Virus genome (UHGV): UHGV-1731069
Source of the DNA: a virus
Length of the DNA stretch: 14,852 nt
Reading direction: 5' to 3' (one strand)
Positions 7,014 to 12,946 of this stretch are shown in pieces. The translations under genes were made by a program, and so were the position numbers. The notes below the pieces were generated by a model that was not told the origin of the DNA, searched no databases, and saw only the letters and a program-made list of their open reading frames with translations. How positions within the stretch are numbered: the stretch's first letter is position 1; the number at the start of each line of letters is the position of its first letter.

Positions 7014-7310
7014 TCACTCCTGTTCACTGGCCTCTTTGGCCATCTTCAAATACTGTTCAGGGCAATGCGCCATAACGCGCTGAAACAGTTCCAGCGCCAG
7101 ATTGCGTTGCCCCTCATTAAATGCCATTGCCATAGCGTCCATCGGCGAGATAGCGGAAAACACACGGCCTTTCTCCAGTACCGACCAGACAACCCGACGC
7201 CCCTGTTCACAGCTCATGACAAAGCGAATGTCATCAATTTCACGCTGTGCCATGTCACGTTGCTTACGGGCGTTTTCTTCTTTCAGTTGATCGTCTTCGT
7301 AATCTGTCAT
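7014..7310 (-). CDS. Hypothetical phage protein between portal and scaffold
   Basis: 98-aa ORF, ATG at 7310 overlapping the portal stop (ATGA), GGGTGGG upstream. No recognisable motif. Confidence 0.5.
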   Translation of the reverse strand: MTDYEDDQLKEENARKQRDMAQREIDDIRFVMSCEQGRRVVWSVLEKGRVFSAISPMDAMAMAFNEGQRNLALELFQRVMAHCPEQYLKMAKEASEQE

Positions 7311-9275: not shown

Positions 9276-9304
9276 TTGACATTTAACGCACGAATTATTA
9301 CCTT
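9276..9304 (+). promoter_or_regulatory. Candidate sigma70-type promoter reading toward the tRNA
   Basis: Perfect -35 TTGACA (9276-9281), 17-bp spacer, then TACCTT (9299-9304), which matches the three most conserved -10 positions. Lies in an AT-rich tract with a 10-bp direct repeat AATTATTACC at 9231-9240 and 9293-9302. Confidence 0.25.
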
Positions 9305-9635
9305 TCAGGTAAGTAAAGGGTTCATTCCGGTTATTAACCTGACTGGCTTGTCGTTAAATTGAACAGGTGGAGTGAGCTTTTATTTTGAGCAGTACGGCGT
9401 ATGGCACATGCGCCGATAGCGGTCTGGATACGTTTAAGGGGCACCCTCCCTTGCTCGGGCAAACGAACCAGGTAGCTGGAATGTGCAAGTCGAGCGGTTT
9501 TATTCCGCGCGCGGGGATTCACCATCCCGGCGATTCGGTGTGACGCCTCGGAAGAGACGAGGGTACAACGATGAGAGCATTTATGGAGCTGCGACAAAGT
9601 GTGGCGCACTTAACAGGCTAAGTGCTCTCAGCGTT

Positions 9636-9712
9636 GTGGCATTAGCTCAGTTGGACAGAGCAACCGCCTTCTAAGCGGTTGGTCGCAGGTTCGAATCCTG
9701 CATGCCACGCCA
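9636..9712 (+). tRNA. tRNA-Arg (anticodon TCT, reads AGA), argU-like, phage-encoded
   Basis: Hand-folded cloverleaf: acceptor GTGGCAT/ATGCCAC, D-stem GCTC/GAGC, anticodon stem ACCGC/GCGGT with loop CTTCTAA (anticodon TCT), T-arm GCAGG-TTCGAAT-CCTGC, discriminator G and encoded CCA. Closely resembles E. coli argU as I recall it but with a different acceptor stem. Confidence 0.9.
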
Positions 9713-9755: not shown

Positions 9756-9797
9756 GGCGGTGATGGTTTCCCTTGAAGGACTATCACCGCCCTTTTT
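9756..9797 (+). terminator. Intrinsic terminator-like hairpin downstream of the tRNA
   Basis: 9-bp perfect stem GGCGGTGAT / ATCACCGCC with an 18-nt loop, followed by CTTTTT. Confidence 0.45.
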
Positions 9798-9875: not shown

Positions 9876-9899
9876 GCCCGGTTCGCCGGGCATTTTTTT
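9876..9899 (+). terminator. Intrinsic terminator-like hairpin immediately upstream of the 139-aa ORF
   Basis: GCCCGG-ttcg-CCGGGC (UUCG tetraloop), then A and seven T. The SD AGGTGA (9901-9906) and ATG 9911 follow directly. Confidence 0.55.
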
Positions 9900-9910
9900 A
9901 AGGTGAGATC

Positions 9911-10330
9911 ATGAAGACAATTGATATGTTGGCTAAGTATCTAAATGAATGGCCATTAAAATATTCTCGTATCGTTCAGGCTGAAGACTGCATTTTTTAT
10001 GGCGTTTTTGCTGATAATGAAATGCATTACGAAGTAATTCAGAGTGAGGGACTGGCCGGGTTAACTCTTAGCGAAGACCATGGTACTAGCGTTACGTTCC
10101 ATGACTGGATAACAGCACAACGTTCTGAAATGGAAAAAGGCGATGTGTTTGATATTTCTCGCGCTGTTTACGCTAAAGCAAAAAGTGATAATGATTACAT
10201 GAGCGAACACTTATACAACATGAAGTTACAATGCCTGCATGCGGCGCTTATTCAGAATGGGCACTTCGATAAAACAAGTGCCATCAATATTGCGGAAGCC
10301 ATCAACGCTGGATTTAATGCCATTAAATAA
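9911..10330 (+). CDS. Hypothetical protein, moron-like accessory gene of unknown function
   Basis: 139-aa ORF on the opposite strand to all flanking genes, with SD AGGTGA 4 nt before the ATG and its own downstream terminator. Hand count gives about 30-37 percent G+C over the first 110 nt, clearly below the flanking structural genes. No recognisable catalytic motif or transmembrane segment. Confidence 0.6.
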   Translation: MKTIDMLAKYLNEWPLKYSRIVQAEDCIFYGVFADNEMHYEVIQSEGLAGLTLSEDHGTSVTFHDWITAQRSEMEKGDVFDISRAVYAKAKSDNDYMSEHLYNMKLQCLHAALIQNGHFDKTSAINIAEAINAGFNAIK

Positions 10331-10333
10331 CAC

Positions 10334-10347
10334 CGTGACATGTCACA
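10334..10347. repeat. CGTGACATGTCACA, containing the perfect 12-bp palindrome GTGACATGTCAC (copy 1)
   Basis: Read directly; lies between the stop of the 139-aa ORF and its terminator, 74 nt from the large terminase stop. An identical 14-mer is at 12599-12612. Confidence 0.6.
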
Positions 10348-10350
10348 AAC

Positions 10351-10377
10351 AGCCAGCCGATGAGCTGGCTTTGTTTT
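10351..10377 (+). terminator. Intrinsic terminator of the 139-aa ORF
   Basis: AGCCAGC-cgatga-GCTGGCT followed by TTGTTTT. Confidence 0.6.
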
Positions 10378-10420
10378 ATCCTCATCAGAGGATATCAACG
10401 ACATTATCCCCACCAGCGGA

Positions 10421-11896
10421 TTAAGCATAGGGATCGTAATCTGTGATGGCCTTGCCTTGCTGGTTCTGCTGCCCGGGAATTCGCAGACGCTTCGACACAG
10501 GAAAAGCAAACGTCAGCAGTAGCGCATCGCCTTTACCCGGCGAACGCCCAAGCCGCTCCTTGATATCTTCCTTCGGTTCGATAACGATTTTACCGTCCAC
10601 GCGAACTTTGTACTCTGCCGCCGACAGGTCGTCTGCAGTTTCCTGGTCATCCAGCATGCCGCCCAGCCTCAGCCATGTCTTACATGAGTTGAACATCTCC
10701 CCACGCTTGTTGAGCATCTGCGGGTCAGTAGACGCGCCACCGAACGGAACAAGTTGCCATGTACGACCCCAGCCGTCACCGATTGACTTCAGACCAGTTC
10801 CGTAACCGAAGTCGATGAACACTGCGTCAGCCTGGTACTGGTCTTCAAAGTCAGCGATACGCTTCGCCATAATCAGATCGTCAGTGGTCTTGTTGCCAGT
10901 CCACAGCACCTTACTGTGCAGCCCCTGCCGCAGGTATATCACAGCGTCATCAACGCCTGAGTATGCCGGGTCAACGCCGATTATCACCGGAGCATGTGCA
11001 ACCTGCGCAGCGGTGACCACCCGTTTCATTGCCTCGTCAGTAAGTCCGGTAGGGATAAACTGCAATTCAGATGCATCCGGGAATATGCCGCGCACACGGA
11101 TTTTAACGAAGTCGCTGTCTTCCCCGTAGTCATCAACCCATTTCTGCAACTGCTGTTTGTTGGTGCCTTCCACCGTCCGGCTGTCAATCTGCGCAGTTTT
11201 CCAGCGGTGTTTATATTTGCGGAAACATTCGCGGAAACGTCCGGTATTACGCGTCGGGTTTCCGAACGCCACCCAGATAATCTCAGTGTCTTCGTCCGTA
11301 AGCGCACCCTCAGCAACTTCCCACACCAGATCCGCAATGTTCGACGCTTCATCGAATACCACGATGATGCGTTTGCGCTCGTTGTGTAGTCCGGCGAATG
11401 CCTCAGTGTTGTGCTCAGACCAGGGGATTGCGTCAGCTCGCCACCGCTTGTCGTGCCCAGGATCATTGCTGTACATCGCGGTAGCGGTACAGGTAAACCA
11501 GTCTTTCGTGATAGCAAGGTTCGACCACTTGATAATTTCCGGCCAGGTCTTCGTTCGTAGCTGGTTGTCGGTGTTGGCAGTCACCACGACCTTACAATCC
11601 TCGCAAGTGGACATGCCCCAGTTGATCAGCATTGAGATGAATGCGGATTTACCAATACCGTGACCAGAAGCGCGTGCCAGCATAAGCGGCTGATAGCGCG
11701 TCTCTGGATTCTGCAGGTGATCACGTATCTCTCGGAACGCATCAGCCTGCCACTGACGTGGGCCGGTGGCATGTGCCAGTTCAGTCCCCTCTTCCCCCCA
11801 CGGGAACGCATAGAGGGCATAGCCAAGCGGATCGTGAGTGAACCCTGCAATATCCTCGATCAACTGCTCTTCAGGAGATAACGCTGTATCTGTCAC
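10421..11896 (-). CDS. Terminase large subunit
   Basis: 491 aa with Walker A-like ARASGHGIGKS, Walker B-like IIVVFDEAS, and a C-terminal nuclease-like region (VIIGVDPAYSGVDDAV). GTG start at 11896 overlaps the small subunit stop (GTGA); there is no in-frame ATG nearby. Confidence 0.85.
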   Translation of the reverse strand: MTDTALSPEEQLIEDIAGFTHDPLGYALYAFPWGEEGTELAHATGPRQWQADAFREIRDHLQNPETRYQPLMLARASGHGIGKSAFISMLINWGMSTCEDCKVVVTANTDNQLRTKTWPEIIKWSNLAITKDWFTCTATAMYSNDPGHDKRWRADAIPWSEHNTEAFAGLHNERKRIIVVFDEASNIADLVWEVAEGALTDEDTEIIWVAFGNPTRNTGRFRECFRKYKHRWKTAQIDSRTVEGTNKQQLQKWVDDYGEDSDFVKIRVRGIFPDASELQFIPTGLTDEAMKRVVTAAQVAHAPVIIGVDPAYSGVDDAVIYLRQGLHSKVLWTGNKTTDDLIMAKRIADFEDQYQADAVFIDFGYGTGLKSIGDGWGRTWQLVPFGGASTDPQMLNKRGEMFNSCKTWLRLGGMLDDQETADDLSAAEYKVRVDGKIVIEPKEDIKERLGRSPGKGDALLLTFAFPVSKRLRIPGQQNQQGKAITDYDPYA

Positions 11897-12489
11897 TGAT
11901 TACCATCCTGACGTTCTTTGAGTCGCTTCCTGGCTGCTGCTATGCGATCAGCAATTGTCACATTCACATTAACATCCAGACGTTCTTTGAACGCGTTGAC
12001 ATCAACATGCTTACCAATCAGCTCAAGGTTCTTCACCTTGTCAGGCCATTTAATTTTTTTGAGGATTGTCTCTATCGAATCCTCGTTCATGTTCATGATG
12101 GTCGATGACAGATCAAAGCCACTAAGCGTAGTGCGCCAGATTTTCGGCCACTCACGGATTGGTTTAAGGCTCCCATCGTCGTTGAGGATATCGATCACGT
12201 CCATCTGGTCGATCTCCACCAGGCGCATGAGAACGTAATCAGCACTGACGCGCATTCGTTTGTTGCGCTCCTCCATCAACTCGGCAATCCGTTTTTGAAT
12301 GCGTTCATCGCGCATCATGACACTGGCTTTAACTGCCGCTGTATTTGGGGAGAATCCTGCATTAATCGCTGCCTGAGTCTGGTTTTCAGGCGTTTTGATG
12401 TATGACTGGCAATAAGCCTCCTGCATTGCTGTTAGTGGCTTAAATTGCGTTGATTTGCGTTTATAGGTTTTAGGTTCAGCAGGCATCAT
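11893..12489 (-). CDS. Terminase small subunit (Terminase_2-like)
   Basis: Helix-turn-helix region QEAYCQSYIKTPENQTQAAINAGFSPNTAAV...RIQKRIAELMEER is typical of Terminase_2-type small subunits as I recall them. The ORF track starts at TTG 12567, but that extension contains a terminator hairpin and direct repeats; the ATG pair at 12489/12486 follows GGTGG. True start is probably 12486 or 12489. Confidence 0.75.
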   Translation of the reverse strand: MMPAEPKTYKRKSTQFKPLTAMQEAYCQSYIKTPENQTQAAINAGFSPNTAAVKASVMMRDERIQKRIAELMEERNKRMRVSADYVLMRLVEIDQMDVIDILNDDGSLKPIREWPKIWRTTLSGFDLSSTIMNMNEDSIETILKKIKWPDKVKNLELIGKHVDVNAFKERLDVNVNVTIADRIAAARKRLKERQDGNQ

Positions 12490-12496
12490 AACCACC

Positions 12497-12525
12497 GTGG
12501 TAATAGTTACCGTTGTGGTAATAGT
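12497..12525. repeat. Two 11-bp direct repeats GTGGTAATAGT just upstream of the terminase small subunit start
   Basis: Copies at 12497-12507 and 12515-12525, between the upstream terminator and the start codon. Could be protein-binding sites; function unknown. Confidence 0.4.
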
Positions 12526-12530
12526 ACCAT

Positions 12531-12558
12531 GCAAAATAAAGCCGCCATAGTTGGCGGC
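12531..12558 (-). terminator. Intrinsic terminator separating the accessory operon from the terminase genes
   Basis: In the minus transcript: GCCGCCA-acua-UGGCGGC followed by UUUAUUUUG. Confidence 0.55.
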
Positions 12559-12598
12559 AGTATTCAAAACCCATCAAATTCATCATGCATAATCTACT

Positions 12599-12612
12599 CG
12601 TGACATGTCACA
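12599..12612. repeat. CGTGACATGTCACA, containing the perfect 12-bp palindrome GTGACATGTCAC (copy 2)
   Basis: Identical 14-mer to 10334-10347; overlaps the TGA stop (12608-12610) of the upstream minus-strand gene and lies upstream of the terminator and terminase start. Confidence 0.6.
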
Positions 12613-12946
12613 CTATTAATTTCGTTTCATGCCAGCCTTTAGTCACCCAGCATTGCGAGTCACCATTACACGGGCATGAATTCACAGGAACTCTCTCGCC
12701 GCACTTACCGCAACGTTTTCTGCCGATCGATTTTATACGCCCGTGCGCGCGAGCATCATCCTGGCGGATAAGTAACGCAATATACTCACCAAATTCGTAA
12801 GGCACACGCCCGGGGCGACGCGTGGCGCAGTTCCGCTCCAGCATTTCAATTTCCTGAGCATCAAGCACAATCTCCAGCTTACGTACACCGGATGCAGCTT
12901 GTCTGGCTCTCTGAGCGGCTTTGCGCTCTGCTGCTGATTTAGCCAT
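12608..12946 (-). CDS. Putative small DNA-binding protein: ribbon-helix-helix-like N-terminus plus C-terminal Cys-rich zinc-ribbon-like tail
   Basis: 112 aa, ATG at 12946. RKLEIVLDAQEIEMLERNCATRRPGRVPYEFGEYIALLIRQD has the strand-helix-helix pattern of RHH (Arc/CopG-type) domains; the C-terminus has CGKCG...CPCNGDSQC. Family assignment is pattern-based and tentative. Confidence 0.45.
   Translation of the reverse strand: MAKSAAERKAAQRARQAASGVRKLEIVLDAQEIEMLERNCATRRPGRVPYEFGEYIALLIRQDDARAHGRIKSIGRKRCGKCGERVPVNSCPCNGDSQCWVTKGWHETKLIV

Follow-up and report, generated by a model that had tools for sequence, protein, structure and literature searches.

Among the described DNA sites closest to the element reported here is matS, the site of the MatP protein, whose consensus is GTGAC[AG]N[TC]GTCAC (GTGACATTGTCAC in E. 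coli; PMC3603311, PMC3116907, PMC8669397) and which prophages are reported to avoid (PMC3603311). In the 14,852-nucleotide (nt) stretch of the virus genome UHGV-1731069 that we analysed (hereafter the window), an exact 14-mer, CGTGACATGTCACA, occurs twice on the + strand (Table 1), and its inner 12 bp, GTGACATGTCAC, form a perfect palindrome. This phage element equals GTGACATTGTCAC minus one central base (one T), with half-sites identical to those of matS; the palindrome string itself appears in no searchable paper.

Our reading, to which we assign a probability of roughly 0.55, is that the element is the cognate operator of the phage's own 112-amino-acid (112-aa) protein, which is ribbon-helix-helix (RHH)-like with a four-cysteine (Cys4) module, and that it is placed at the 3' ends of transcription units. 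The evidence is of a conserved DNA element, specific for a 2-bp spacer (N2), that is genetically coupled to one protein family and placed at stop codons, and that in the epsilon15 group stands immediately before terminators. From these sequences we infer GTGAC-N2-GTCAC as the core of a protein-binding site that would be read at the level of DNA.

The palindrome in the window and in close relatives

The window comes from a temperate podovirus of the epsilon15/phiV10-like (Uetakevirus-type) kind that has its late genes on the - strand. DNA identity of the region is 96-98% with the E. coli phages HEMP4, ZX5, TL-2011b and phiV10, and about 81% with epsilon15 of Salmonella; PF03592 is matched by terS and PF12236 by the portal gene. 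A preliminary description of this DNA had reported the two copies of the 14-mer, their positions and the 12-bp palindrome, all of which are in the sequence as described, and had judged a chance identity of 14 bp very unlikely. We agree: with up to two mismatches allowed, five strand-matches to the 14-mer occur in the window versus 0.15 expected, and none of 200 dinucleotide-preserving shuffles reached five. Its remark that no other copy had been noticed needs amending, for the window also has a 13/14 copy on the - strand, CGTGACATGGCACA, and complete relatives have a third copy. CGTGACATGGCACA reads in frame (R-D-M-A) within a 98-aa open reading frame (ORF) at 7014-7310 (PHROG 528, homologous to epsilon15 gp5) and is kept in E. 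coli relatives. As it is coding, has one half-site broken and was not found in epsilon15, we do not count it as part of the system, and it is probably non-functional.

The preliminary description was also right to place each copy at a stop codon and ahead of a terminator hairpin. Copy 1 starts 3 nt past the TAA (10328-10330) of a 139-aa ORF on the + strand and ends 3 nt ahead of a terminator stem (fold energy -15.5 kcal/mol, z = -2.6). On the - strand, copy 2 takes in the TGA stop (12610-12608) with which the 112-aa ORF ends; 41 nt further along that strand comes a terminator, and after it an operator-like ATTACC-N5-GGTAAC and then terS. The epsilon15 hairpin homologous to this second terminator is annotated as rho-independent. 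That the copies flank exactly terS and TerL holds within the window and is incidental, as a third perfect copy lies about 17 kb off in complete relatives; the apparent bracketing of the terminase module is an artefact of the extent of the window, and the element is no part of that module. Since complete relatives carry this third copy outside the region sampled here, the two copies in the window are two of three marks at operon ends.

Table 1. The palindromic element and its neighbours in the window (14,852 nt)
Feature	Position	Strand	Remarks
Copy 1	10334-10347 (palindrome 10335-10346)		exact 14-mer
Copy 2	12599-12612 (palindrome 12600-12611)		exact 14-mer; - strand reading TGTGACATGTCACG
13/14 copy CGTGACATGGCACA	7246-7259	-	coding
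139-aa accessory (moron) ORF, PHROG 4846	9911-10330	+	copy 1 at its 3' end
Terminator after copy 1	10351-10378	+	stem-loop 10351-10370, then TTGTTTTA; common to the convergent TerL gene
TerL gene	10421-11896	-	convergent with the 139-aa ORF
Terminator after copy 2	12531-12558	-	stem-loop 12558-12541, then TTTATTTTGC; between the 112-aa gene and terS
Remnant ORF, eight codons (MHDEFDGF*)	12564-12590	-	between copy 2 and terminator
Gene of the 112-aa candidate site-binding protein	12608-12946	-	PHROG 536; family of epsilon15 gp49, phiV10 p55 and N15 gp46

Both junctions are conserved in close relatives, a point that had been left for checking. Among 80 relatives gathered through TerL, copy 2 is exact in 77 of 79, and copy 1, in the 70 that have the same TerL end, retains its exact core in 61, has one mismatch in seven and is missing from two. 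At about 81% DNA identity, epsilon15 still has the exact 14-mer of copy 1, next to a terminator stem that has diverged. The complete epsilon15 genome holds exactly three perfect copies. Two of them overlap TGA stops, namely those of gp49 (the 112-aa homologue) and of gp18, which closes the long structural operon, and the copy at gp18 directly abuts an annotated terminator; the remaining one lies downstream of TerL at the end of the reverse-oriented accessory gene p50. The same three positions are occupied in phiV10, twice perfectly and, at the p55 stop, with one mismatch (GTGACATGTTAC); all three sites adjoin terminators in both phages, and in both the third copy lies about 17 kb from terS. 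A degenerate GTGACATGGCAT (two mismatches), for which we found no phiV10 counterpart, overlaps the TGA stop of the gene for the Rz spanin, where the epsilon15 lysis operon ends (26618-26629 of locus L205), and may be a decayed fourth site or due to chance.

The place of the 139-aa ORF, with TerL on one side and the gp3/portal genes on the other, holds cargo that varies. TL-2011b, which lacks copy 1, has a different accessory gene and terminator at this place, and in locus L034 copy 1 is doubled, with two tandem accessory genes each closed by a palindrome and a terminator. The eight-codon ORF between copy 2 and its terminator results from the internal deletion of an ORF of about 70 aa that in relatives follows the palindrome directly, with palindrome, Shine-Dalgarno (SD) sequence and ATG in series (e.g. 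L008, 3113-3325); its C-terminus, DEFDGF, resembles that of the epsilon15 accessory protein p50 (...KDEFDRF*).

An exact-14-mer scan of viral contigs gave at least 128 occurrences, and the exact search biases this part of the sample. Among the occurrences listed, at least 40 lie at the 3' end of genes for 112-aa homologues (50-96% identical), and at least 59 others are coding or in unrelated GC-rich sequence, approximately as expected from chance and database redundancy. The terminator stands right at the ...TCACA side in at least 28 of those listed, versus at least one with it on the other side. When all loci were pooled, there were 58 distinct terminator-adjacent contexts, in 50 of which the palindrome ends 0-4 nt before the terminator stem and in 30 of which it starts 4 nt past a stop triplet. 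The same palindrome joins 21 different gene 3' ends and 12 different terminators in related phages, and since ORF types 4, 6 and 7 are each found with two or three terminator types, reassortment across the element has occurred.

A second palindromic motif in the window, the ATTACC-N5-GGTAAC at 12506-12522 upstream of terS, has a counterpart (TTACC-N5-GGTAA, 9298-9312) upstream of the gp3 homologue. The epsilon15 record annotates ATTACC-N5-GGTAAT as the binding site of the prophage 'repressor'; besides the immunity region, the motif is found there ahead of terS, gp3, gp20 and gp43, so that the late operons may have repressor-controlled promoters of their own. These annotated operators, considered as possible instances of our element, were set aside as a different motif; the paper on ZX5 covers the repressor, antirepressor and integrase only.

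Two further features of the window were noted. A tRNA-Arg gene (anticodon TCT) lies at 9636-9712 on the + strand, opposite to the late genes, and is annotated in related phages as well; 3' of it, on the same strand, are terminator-like hairpins at 9756-9791 and 9876-9891 (the latter plus T7) and then the SD sequence and ATG of the 139-aa ORF. The longest terS ORF (11893-12567, - strand) would begin at a TTG at 12567, as annotated in phiV10, and would then span both the terminator and the operator-like motif, so that a start at the ATG at 12486 (TL-2011b RefSeq annotation, 197 aa) is more plausible.

Coupling of the site to a small protein family

A tblastn search with the 112-aa protein (hereafter the regulator) found homologues in N15 (gp46), phiKO2, Yersinia P2-like phages, and Aeromonas and Vibrio phages, and the pair of gene and site is present in three unrelated phage groups: the epsilon15/phiV10 group, N15-like siphoviruses and Yersinia P2-like myoviruses. 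In the N15-like and Yersinia P2-like phages, homologues 35-42% identical to the window protein have their stop codon embedded in GTGAC-N2-GTCAC, and the site is repeated elsewhere in the genome. The gene of N15 gp46 (35% identity) ends in GCG-TGA-CTGGTCAC, i.e. GTGACTGGTCAC, and that of gp11 of Yersinia phage vB_YenM_06.16-2 (YenM06.16-2; 41%) has its stop in TGTGACGCGTCACA; the stop lies inside the same motif in the epsilon15 and SPN1S homologues. At the stop of the homologue in Aeromonas 85AhydR10PP (32% identity) there is a degenerate TGACATGGCAC, and at that in Vibrio K303 (31%) no site. Because the TGA stop lies inside the palindrome, gene and site are inherited together. The stop-embedded site was found in 19 of 19 distinct sequence contexts among 49 N15-like loci, and in essentially all of 53 Yersinia-type loci (about 30 distinct contexts), with a shift of 9 nt in one.

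Consistent with this, all six homologues that we picked by protein similarity alone (Tyrion, BUCT554, PAT1, BUCT711, Omnitron and Klebsiella 020009) carry the site, while the sequence past it differs among them, being a terminator, a small ORF or a umuD'-like moron with a LexA box. The site thus travels with the gene and not with the downstream sequence. Nor did we find a conserved partner gene downstream of the regulator, where the neighbours are N15 gene 47, an ORF of about 70 aa, a umuD'-like gene, tum or an AlpA-like gene. In BUCT554 (L324) and BUCT711 (L326), at about 430-520, and in contigs of the L115 type, the moron is inserted between the regulator's site and terS, and has a near-consensus LexA box (TACTGTTTAAATGTACAGTA) over a TTGACT-N17-TACTGT promoter, followed by the umuD'-like ORF (MGFPSP...). 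In Yersinia P2-like loci (L264-L308), a conserved half-site (TGTGACGYG or GCGCGTCACA) lies 20-25 nt past the regulator's stop, separated from the full site by an AT-rich spacer and followed by a terminator-like hairpin and the tum antirepressor gene; full site and half-site together look like a composite operator.

The length of the spacer is strictly kept. In four complete genomes (epsilon15, phiV10, N15 and YenM06.16-2; 155 kb), a search for GTGAC-Nx-GTCAC gave nine sites for x = 2 and none for x = 0, 1 or 3-7 (0.15 expected for each), and in three sets of loci the N2 form was counted 139, 105 and 58 times, versus 0-3 for any other spacer. True matS sites, with their 3-bp spacer, are absent from these four genomes, which agrees with the reported avoidance of matS by prophages (PMC3603311). 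N15 has its own variant of the site three times (0.08 expected): at the stop of gp46, in the interval from gene 33 to the terminator preceding the antC/B/A operon, and inside repA, the latter two positions being kept in N15-like contigs.

The accessory gene that carries copy 1 in phiV10, phiV10p03, belongs to the widespread N4 gp49/Sf6 gene 66 family, and its homologues in Skatevirus LPST10 and Lederbergvirus Brookers (68-75% identical) have no site past their stop; these two phage records are not among the organisms matched in the regulator search. In three loci (L109, L116 and Rouxiella L337) that have a regulator without a stop-embedded site, the exact 14-mer lies inside a 151-aa gene a few kb away. 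It is read there in frame (R-D-M-S-H/Q) near the 3' end of the gene, at positions 1499 of L109, 1398 of L116, 1547 of L337 and likewise 6847 of L108, and has been preserved even though the flanking codons have strongly diverged. The 12-bp palindrome of L153 lies across the start of a QuuD-like Q gene (MRDMSQ...), and the regulator's stop in that phage is in GTGACCTGTCAC.

The frequency of the motif in the host genome, named in the preliminary description as a possible refutation, was addressed indirectly by a scan of species-representative genomes, which listed at least 120 loci with the exact 14-mer. These loci are spread across all phyla about as often as chance would have it, apart from a few prophage contexts in Enterobacterales, and at least five have a regulator homologue within 8 kb. 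In four of these five the 14-mer lies at the 3' end of the regulator gene, and in the fifth (Rouxiella) inside the 151-aa gene; at least three of the five, among the matches listed, belong to Enterobacterales (Serratia, Rouxiella and Pseudescherichia).

The protein itself falls into PHROG 536, labelled 'transcriptional regulator' (E = 3e-53), and sequence and profile searches returned nothing significant in Pfam, NCBIfam or PDB. Its family comprises about 700-900 clusters in public data, nearly all of whose entries bear the generic name 'transcriptional regulator' or are called hypothetical. When homologues from the different clades are aligned, they have in common a basic stretch at the N-terminus, a short segment that is hydrophobic and strand-like, two helices and, towards the C-terminus, four invariant cysteines (C79, C82, C91 and C99; CxxC-x8-C-x7-C). 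AlphaFold monomer models of modest confidence (pLDDT 62 and 69) place helices at 5-18, 30-42 and 52-75 and an extended segment at 19-29, a predicted pattern that would be expected of an RHH protein modelled without its dimer partner, and the fold is probably RHH. In structure comparisons with these models, MatP-matS was the top match, a weak one, with RHH antitoxins and CopG-family regulators as neighbours. If the site is its target, an unassigned family gains a candidate DNA site and a testable function in epsilon15/phiV10, N15-type telomere and Yersinia P2-like phages.

Possible functions of the site

Among the roles proposed in the preliminary description was that of an operator for a dimeric regulator, with the adjacent RHH-like protein as candidate. 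This idea has gained most from the comparisons above: in three phage lineages, each with a variant of its own, the site contains the stop codon of the gene, and there is no site at the homologous accessory genes of the two phage records in which no regulator was matched. We consider it likely, judging from the sequences, that the 112-aa protein binds the site as a dimer. Under the cognate-operator reading, a dimer of this protein, made late in the early-right operon, would bind the sites and act on RNA polymerase at operon ends, either as a roadblock or as a modulator of termination. At the regulator's own stop codon, this would provide negative autoregulation and control of read-through towards terS and the late genes; at accessory genes it may bring about silencing or insulation during lytic growth. 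That the consequence of binding is such a transcriptional roadblock or boundary control, rather than an architectural effect, is a more tentative proposition that falls clearly short of even odds. We prefer it because of the tight stop-palindrome-terminator geometry, because the regulator gene has a Q-like position as the last early-right gene before terS, and because there is a precedent in the LacI roadblock at the 3' end of lacI.

Several points weigh against the operator reading. Unusually for operators, the sites lie away from promoters, and the stop carries no site in the homologues of Vibrio K303, L109, L116, L184, L317 and L319. The central dinucleotide varies within clades, and strict covariation of protein and site cannot be shown; moreover, the many loci gathered through the exact 14-mer bias that part of the sample. 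We found no paper on the 112-aa family in the searchable literature, where the family, its site and the likeness to matS appear to be undescribed. In N15, an annotated terminator lies downstream of only one of the three sites (at about 115 nt) and another of the sites is inside repA. As the N15 sites are mostly without an annotated terminator and one is in repA, a mechanism linked to terminators is not general.

No conserved promoter overlaps the site. The only promoter-like match, 9/12 at 12611-12582 on the - strand, has no equivalent that could be seen by eye in relatives, where no promoter scan was run, and two of the three sites have no late promoter context downstream. Some relatives do have a promoter 3' of the site (TTGACT...TACTGT), but it is the one with the LexA box that belongs to the inserted umuD'-like moron, and is unrelated to the palindrome. 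Lambdoid Q-type antitermination was likewise rejected, as there is no Q-family match in Pfam, NCBIfam or PHROGs.

The same coupling of gene and site could serve an architectural rather than a transcriptional end. The 112-aa protein would then bind the sites as a phage-private counterpart of MatP and matS, bridging or condensing the phage genome, or handling the host SMC complex (MukBEF) or the divisome as MatP-matS does at the chromosome terminus, and the 2-bp spacer would keep the system orthogonal to host MatP. Besides the identity of the half-sites to those of matS, the sites are few (1-3 per genome), widely dispersed and off promoters, one being in N15 repA. Physical linkage of a site to a gene is typical of cis-site/trans-protein pairs such as parB-parS, and the hosts of the family (Enterobacterales, Vibrio and Aeromonas) coincide with the clade that bears MatP. 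We nonetheless regard such a role as unlikely, given that the protein has no sequence homology to MatP, lacks its four-helix bundle and coiled-coil and has a Cys4 tail, and that the stop-palindrome-terminator geometry is more naturally transcriptional, though it may simply be that no other non-coding space is free. A host protein, MatP or another factor, might instead bind the sites, the phage carrying near-matS sequences to recruit or titrate MatP; half-sites and flanking central bases do fit the matS consensus save for the one deleted base. This we hold to be improbable, as all sites have the 2-bp spacer with no N3 site in epsilon15, phiV10, N15 or the Yersinia phage, the centres TG (N15) and GC (Yersinia) are not consistently RNY minus one base, and the site tracks the stop of a phage gene from lineage to lineage, with none at the homologous accessory genes of the two regulator-unmatched records, quite apart from the reported avoidance of matS by prophages (PMC3603311).

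The preliminary description also proposed a module-boundary recombination site that exchanges terminase cassettes, and gene 3' ends and terminators have indeed been reassorted across the palindrome, but it is small accessory (moron) genes that were exchanged and not terminase genes. Mixing of 21 gene 3' ends and 12 terminators, with ORF types 4, 6 and 7 among the mixed ones, the tandem cassettes of L034 that each close with a palindrome and terminator, and the RecE/RecT-type recombinases encoded by these phages could all suit a palindrome conserved as a crossover point or cassette boundary, with no dedicated regulatory protein. Yet any selectively kept 14-mer becomes a crossover point, and the reassortment pattern, being what any conserved 14-bp island would give, is a by-product. 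Such a linker would leave unexplained the stop-embedded copy of N15-like and P2-like phages, which show no exchange of cassettes, as well as the sites inside N15 repA and the 151-aa gene; the indel beside copy 2 arose by deletion within the downstream ORF and not by a break at the palindrome, and right-hand cassette boundaries lie beyond the terminator (L018). While we therefore give little credence to recombination as the reason for its conservation, the 14-mer is a joint in the reshuffling of accessory genes and terminators, which bears on the spread of moron cassettes.

At the level of RNA, the palindrome might form a small hairpin in 3' untranslated regions (UTRs) that aids termination, processing or mRNA stability, and in the epsilon15 group it does always stand in transcribed 3' ends beside terminators, with a hairpin of 4-5 bp in minimum-free-energy folds. 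The palindrome alone, however, has a fold energy of -1.2 kcal/mol (z = 0), which does not improve on shuffled sequence; it is the half-sites that are conserved in sequence, with no compensatory changes and with arms fixed across clades while the centre varies; sites also lie within coding regions and in both orientations; and no Rfam family matches the palindrome, Rfam finding only the tRNA. An RNA element is thus very improbable, and the palindrome as the terminator stem itself was rejected on account of the same weak fold and of the separate, adjacent terminator hairpins. The third role in the preliminary description was a recognition site for a packaging or nuclease protein, for which the position of the copies on both sides of terS and TerL in the window would speak. 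This is the least credible of the roles considered, as the third copy lies 17 kb away, copy 1 is absent from TL-2011b and some other relatives with the same terminase, and the same site occurs, far from the terminase genes, in phages with unrelated terminases, namely N15 (cos ends, lambda-like terminase) and P2-like phages of Yersinia. A physical genome end (cos/pac) was rejected as well: the phiV10 record starts inside copy 2 by convention, and ends at the p55 stop.

Comparison with described systems

Cassette sites of integrons (attC) are imperfect inverted repeats at the 3' end of each cassette, which the IntI integrase recombines. Such a site was rejected here, as epsilon15 and phiV10 have no IntI-like gene, the site is only 12 bp, and crossovers fell between ORF and terminator rather than moving whole units (although tandem ORF-palindrome-terminator units do exist, as in L034). 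A lead of another kind is the binding site of SlmA, with the 12-bp palindrome GTGAGTACTCAC as its consensus. Our element has the outer four bases of each arm in common with this consensus (8/12 positions), and differs in its centre, GTAC versus CATG, at positions presumably important for SlmA. Sites of MatP and SlmA are themselves known to have their flanking 4 bp in common (PMC3116907).

With respect to gene order, lambda Q offers a parallel. In the epsilon15/phiV10 group, the 112-aa gene stands where Q would be, closing the early-right operon behind NinX-like genes, and the site, the terminator and the late genes terS-TerL come next; N15 and the P2-like phages have Q or Ogr-like late regulators of their own besides the 112-aa family protein. 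With respect to placement, the parallel is LacI, a regulator with an operator at the 3' end of its own gene that can halt RNA polymerase before the stop, with feedback on LacI synthesis. Binding of LacI at the 3' end of lacI reportedly yields truncated lacI mRNA and SsrA tagging (as Abo and colleagues are said to have described in 2000). The comparison with LacI is one of analogy only, the protein families being unrelated.

MatP (about 150 aa), the organiser of the Ter macrodomain in E. coli and related bacteria, consists of a four-helix bundle, an RHH domain and a coiled-coil, whereas the 112-aa protein has neither bundle nor coiled-coil and carries the Cys4 tail instead; a profile of its family compared with E. 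coli MatP (sequence verified against 4d8j) gave an hhalign probability of 0.1%, that is, no detectable sequence homology. The spacer of matS is 3 bp and that of the phage sites strictly 2 bp, and, unlike matS, the sites described here are carried by phages, where they stand at stop codons and terminators and one of them lies within the gene of the protein itself. Spacer, lack of homology and differing architecture exclude that element and protein belong to MatP/matS as such. Nonetheless, the identity of the half-sites together with the top structural match is too pointed to ignore, and distant ancestry, convergence or an orthogonal 'private matS' would each account for it. Near-matS sites and an RHH-like protein in phages, despite the avoidance of matS by prophages, raise the question of an orthogonal MatP-like system. 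We offer as a speculation, with the odds well against it, that a widespread, undescribed family of small proteins (PHROG 536) uses a private matS, one base shorter and without cross-talk to MatP, either as an organiser or SMC device or as a stop-codon operator; if true, a private-matS organiser or a roadblock at the stop codon would be a mode of action new for temperate phages.

The RHH regulators of the Arc, Mnt, CopG and ParD/MazE types are also comparable in kind. Like the 112-aa protein, they are small and have a (here predicted) strand-helix-helix core, and they target a short palindrome with gene and site adjacent, as would be the case here with the target that we infer. Unlike them, the 112-aa protein has an additional invariant Cys4 module and matches no Pfam RHH family. 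The operators of RHH regulators overlap the promoter of their own operon, at its 5' end, whereas the site described here overlaps the gene's 3' end with its stop codon, and other copies in the phages precede terminators. This unusual placement, in the stop codon of the regulator and before terminators, suggests either that operons are controlled at their 3' ends or that the site has a role outside transcription.

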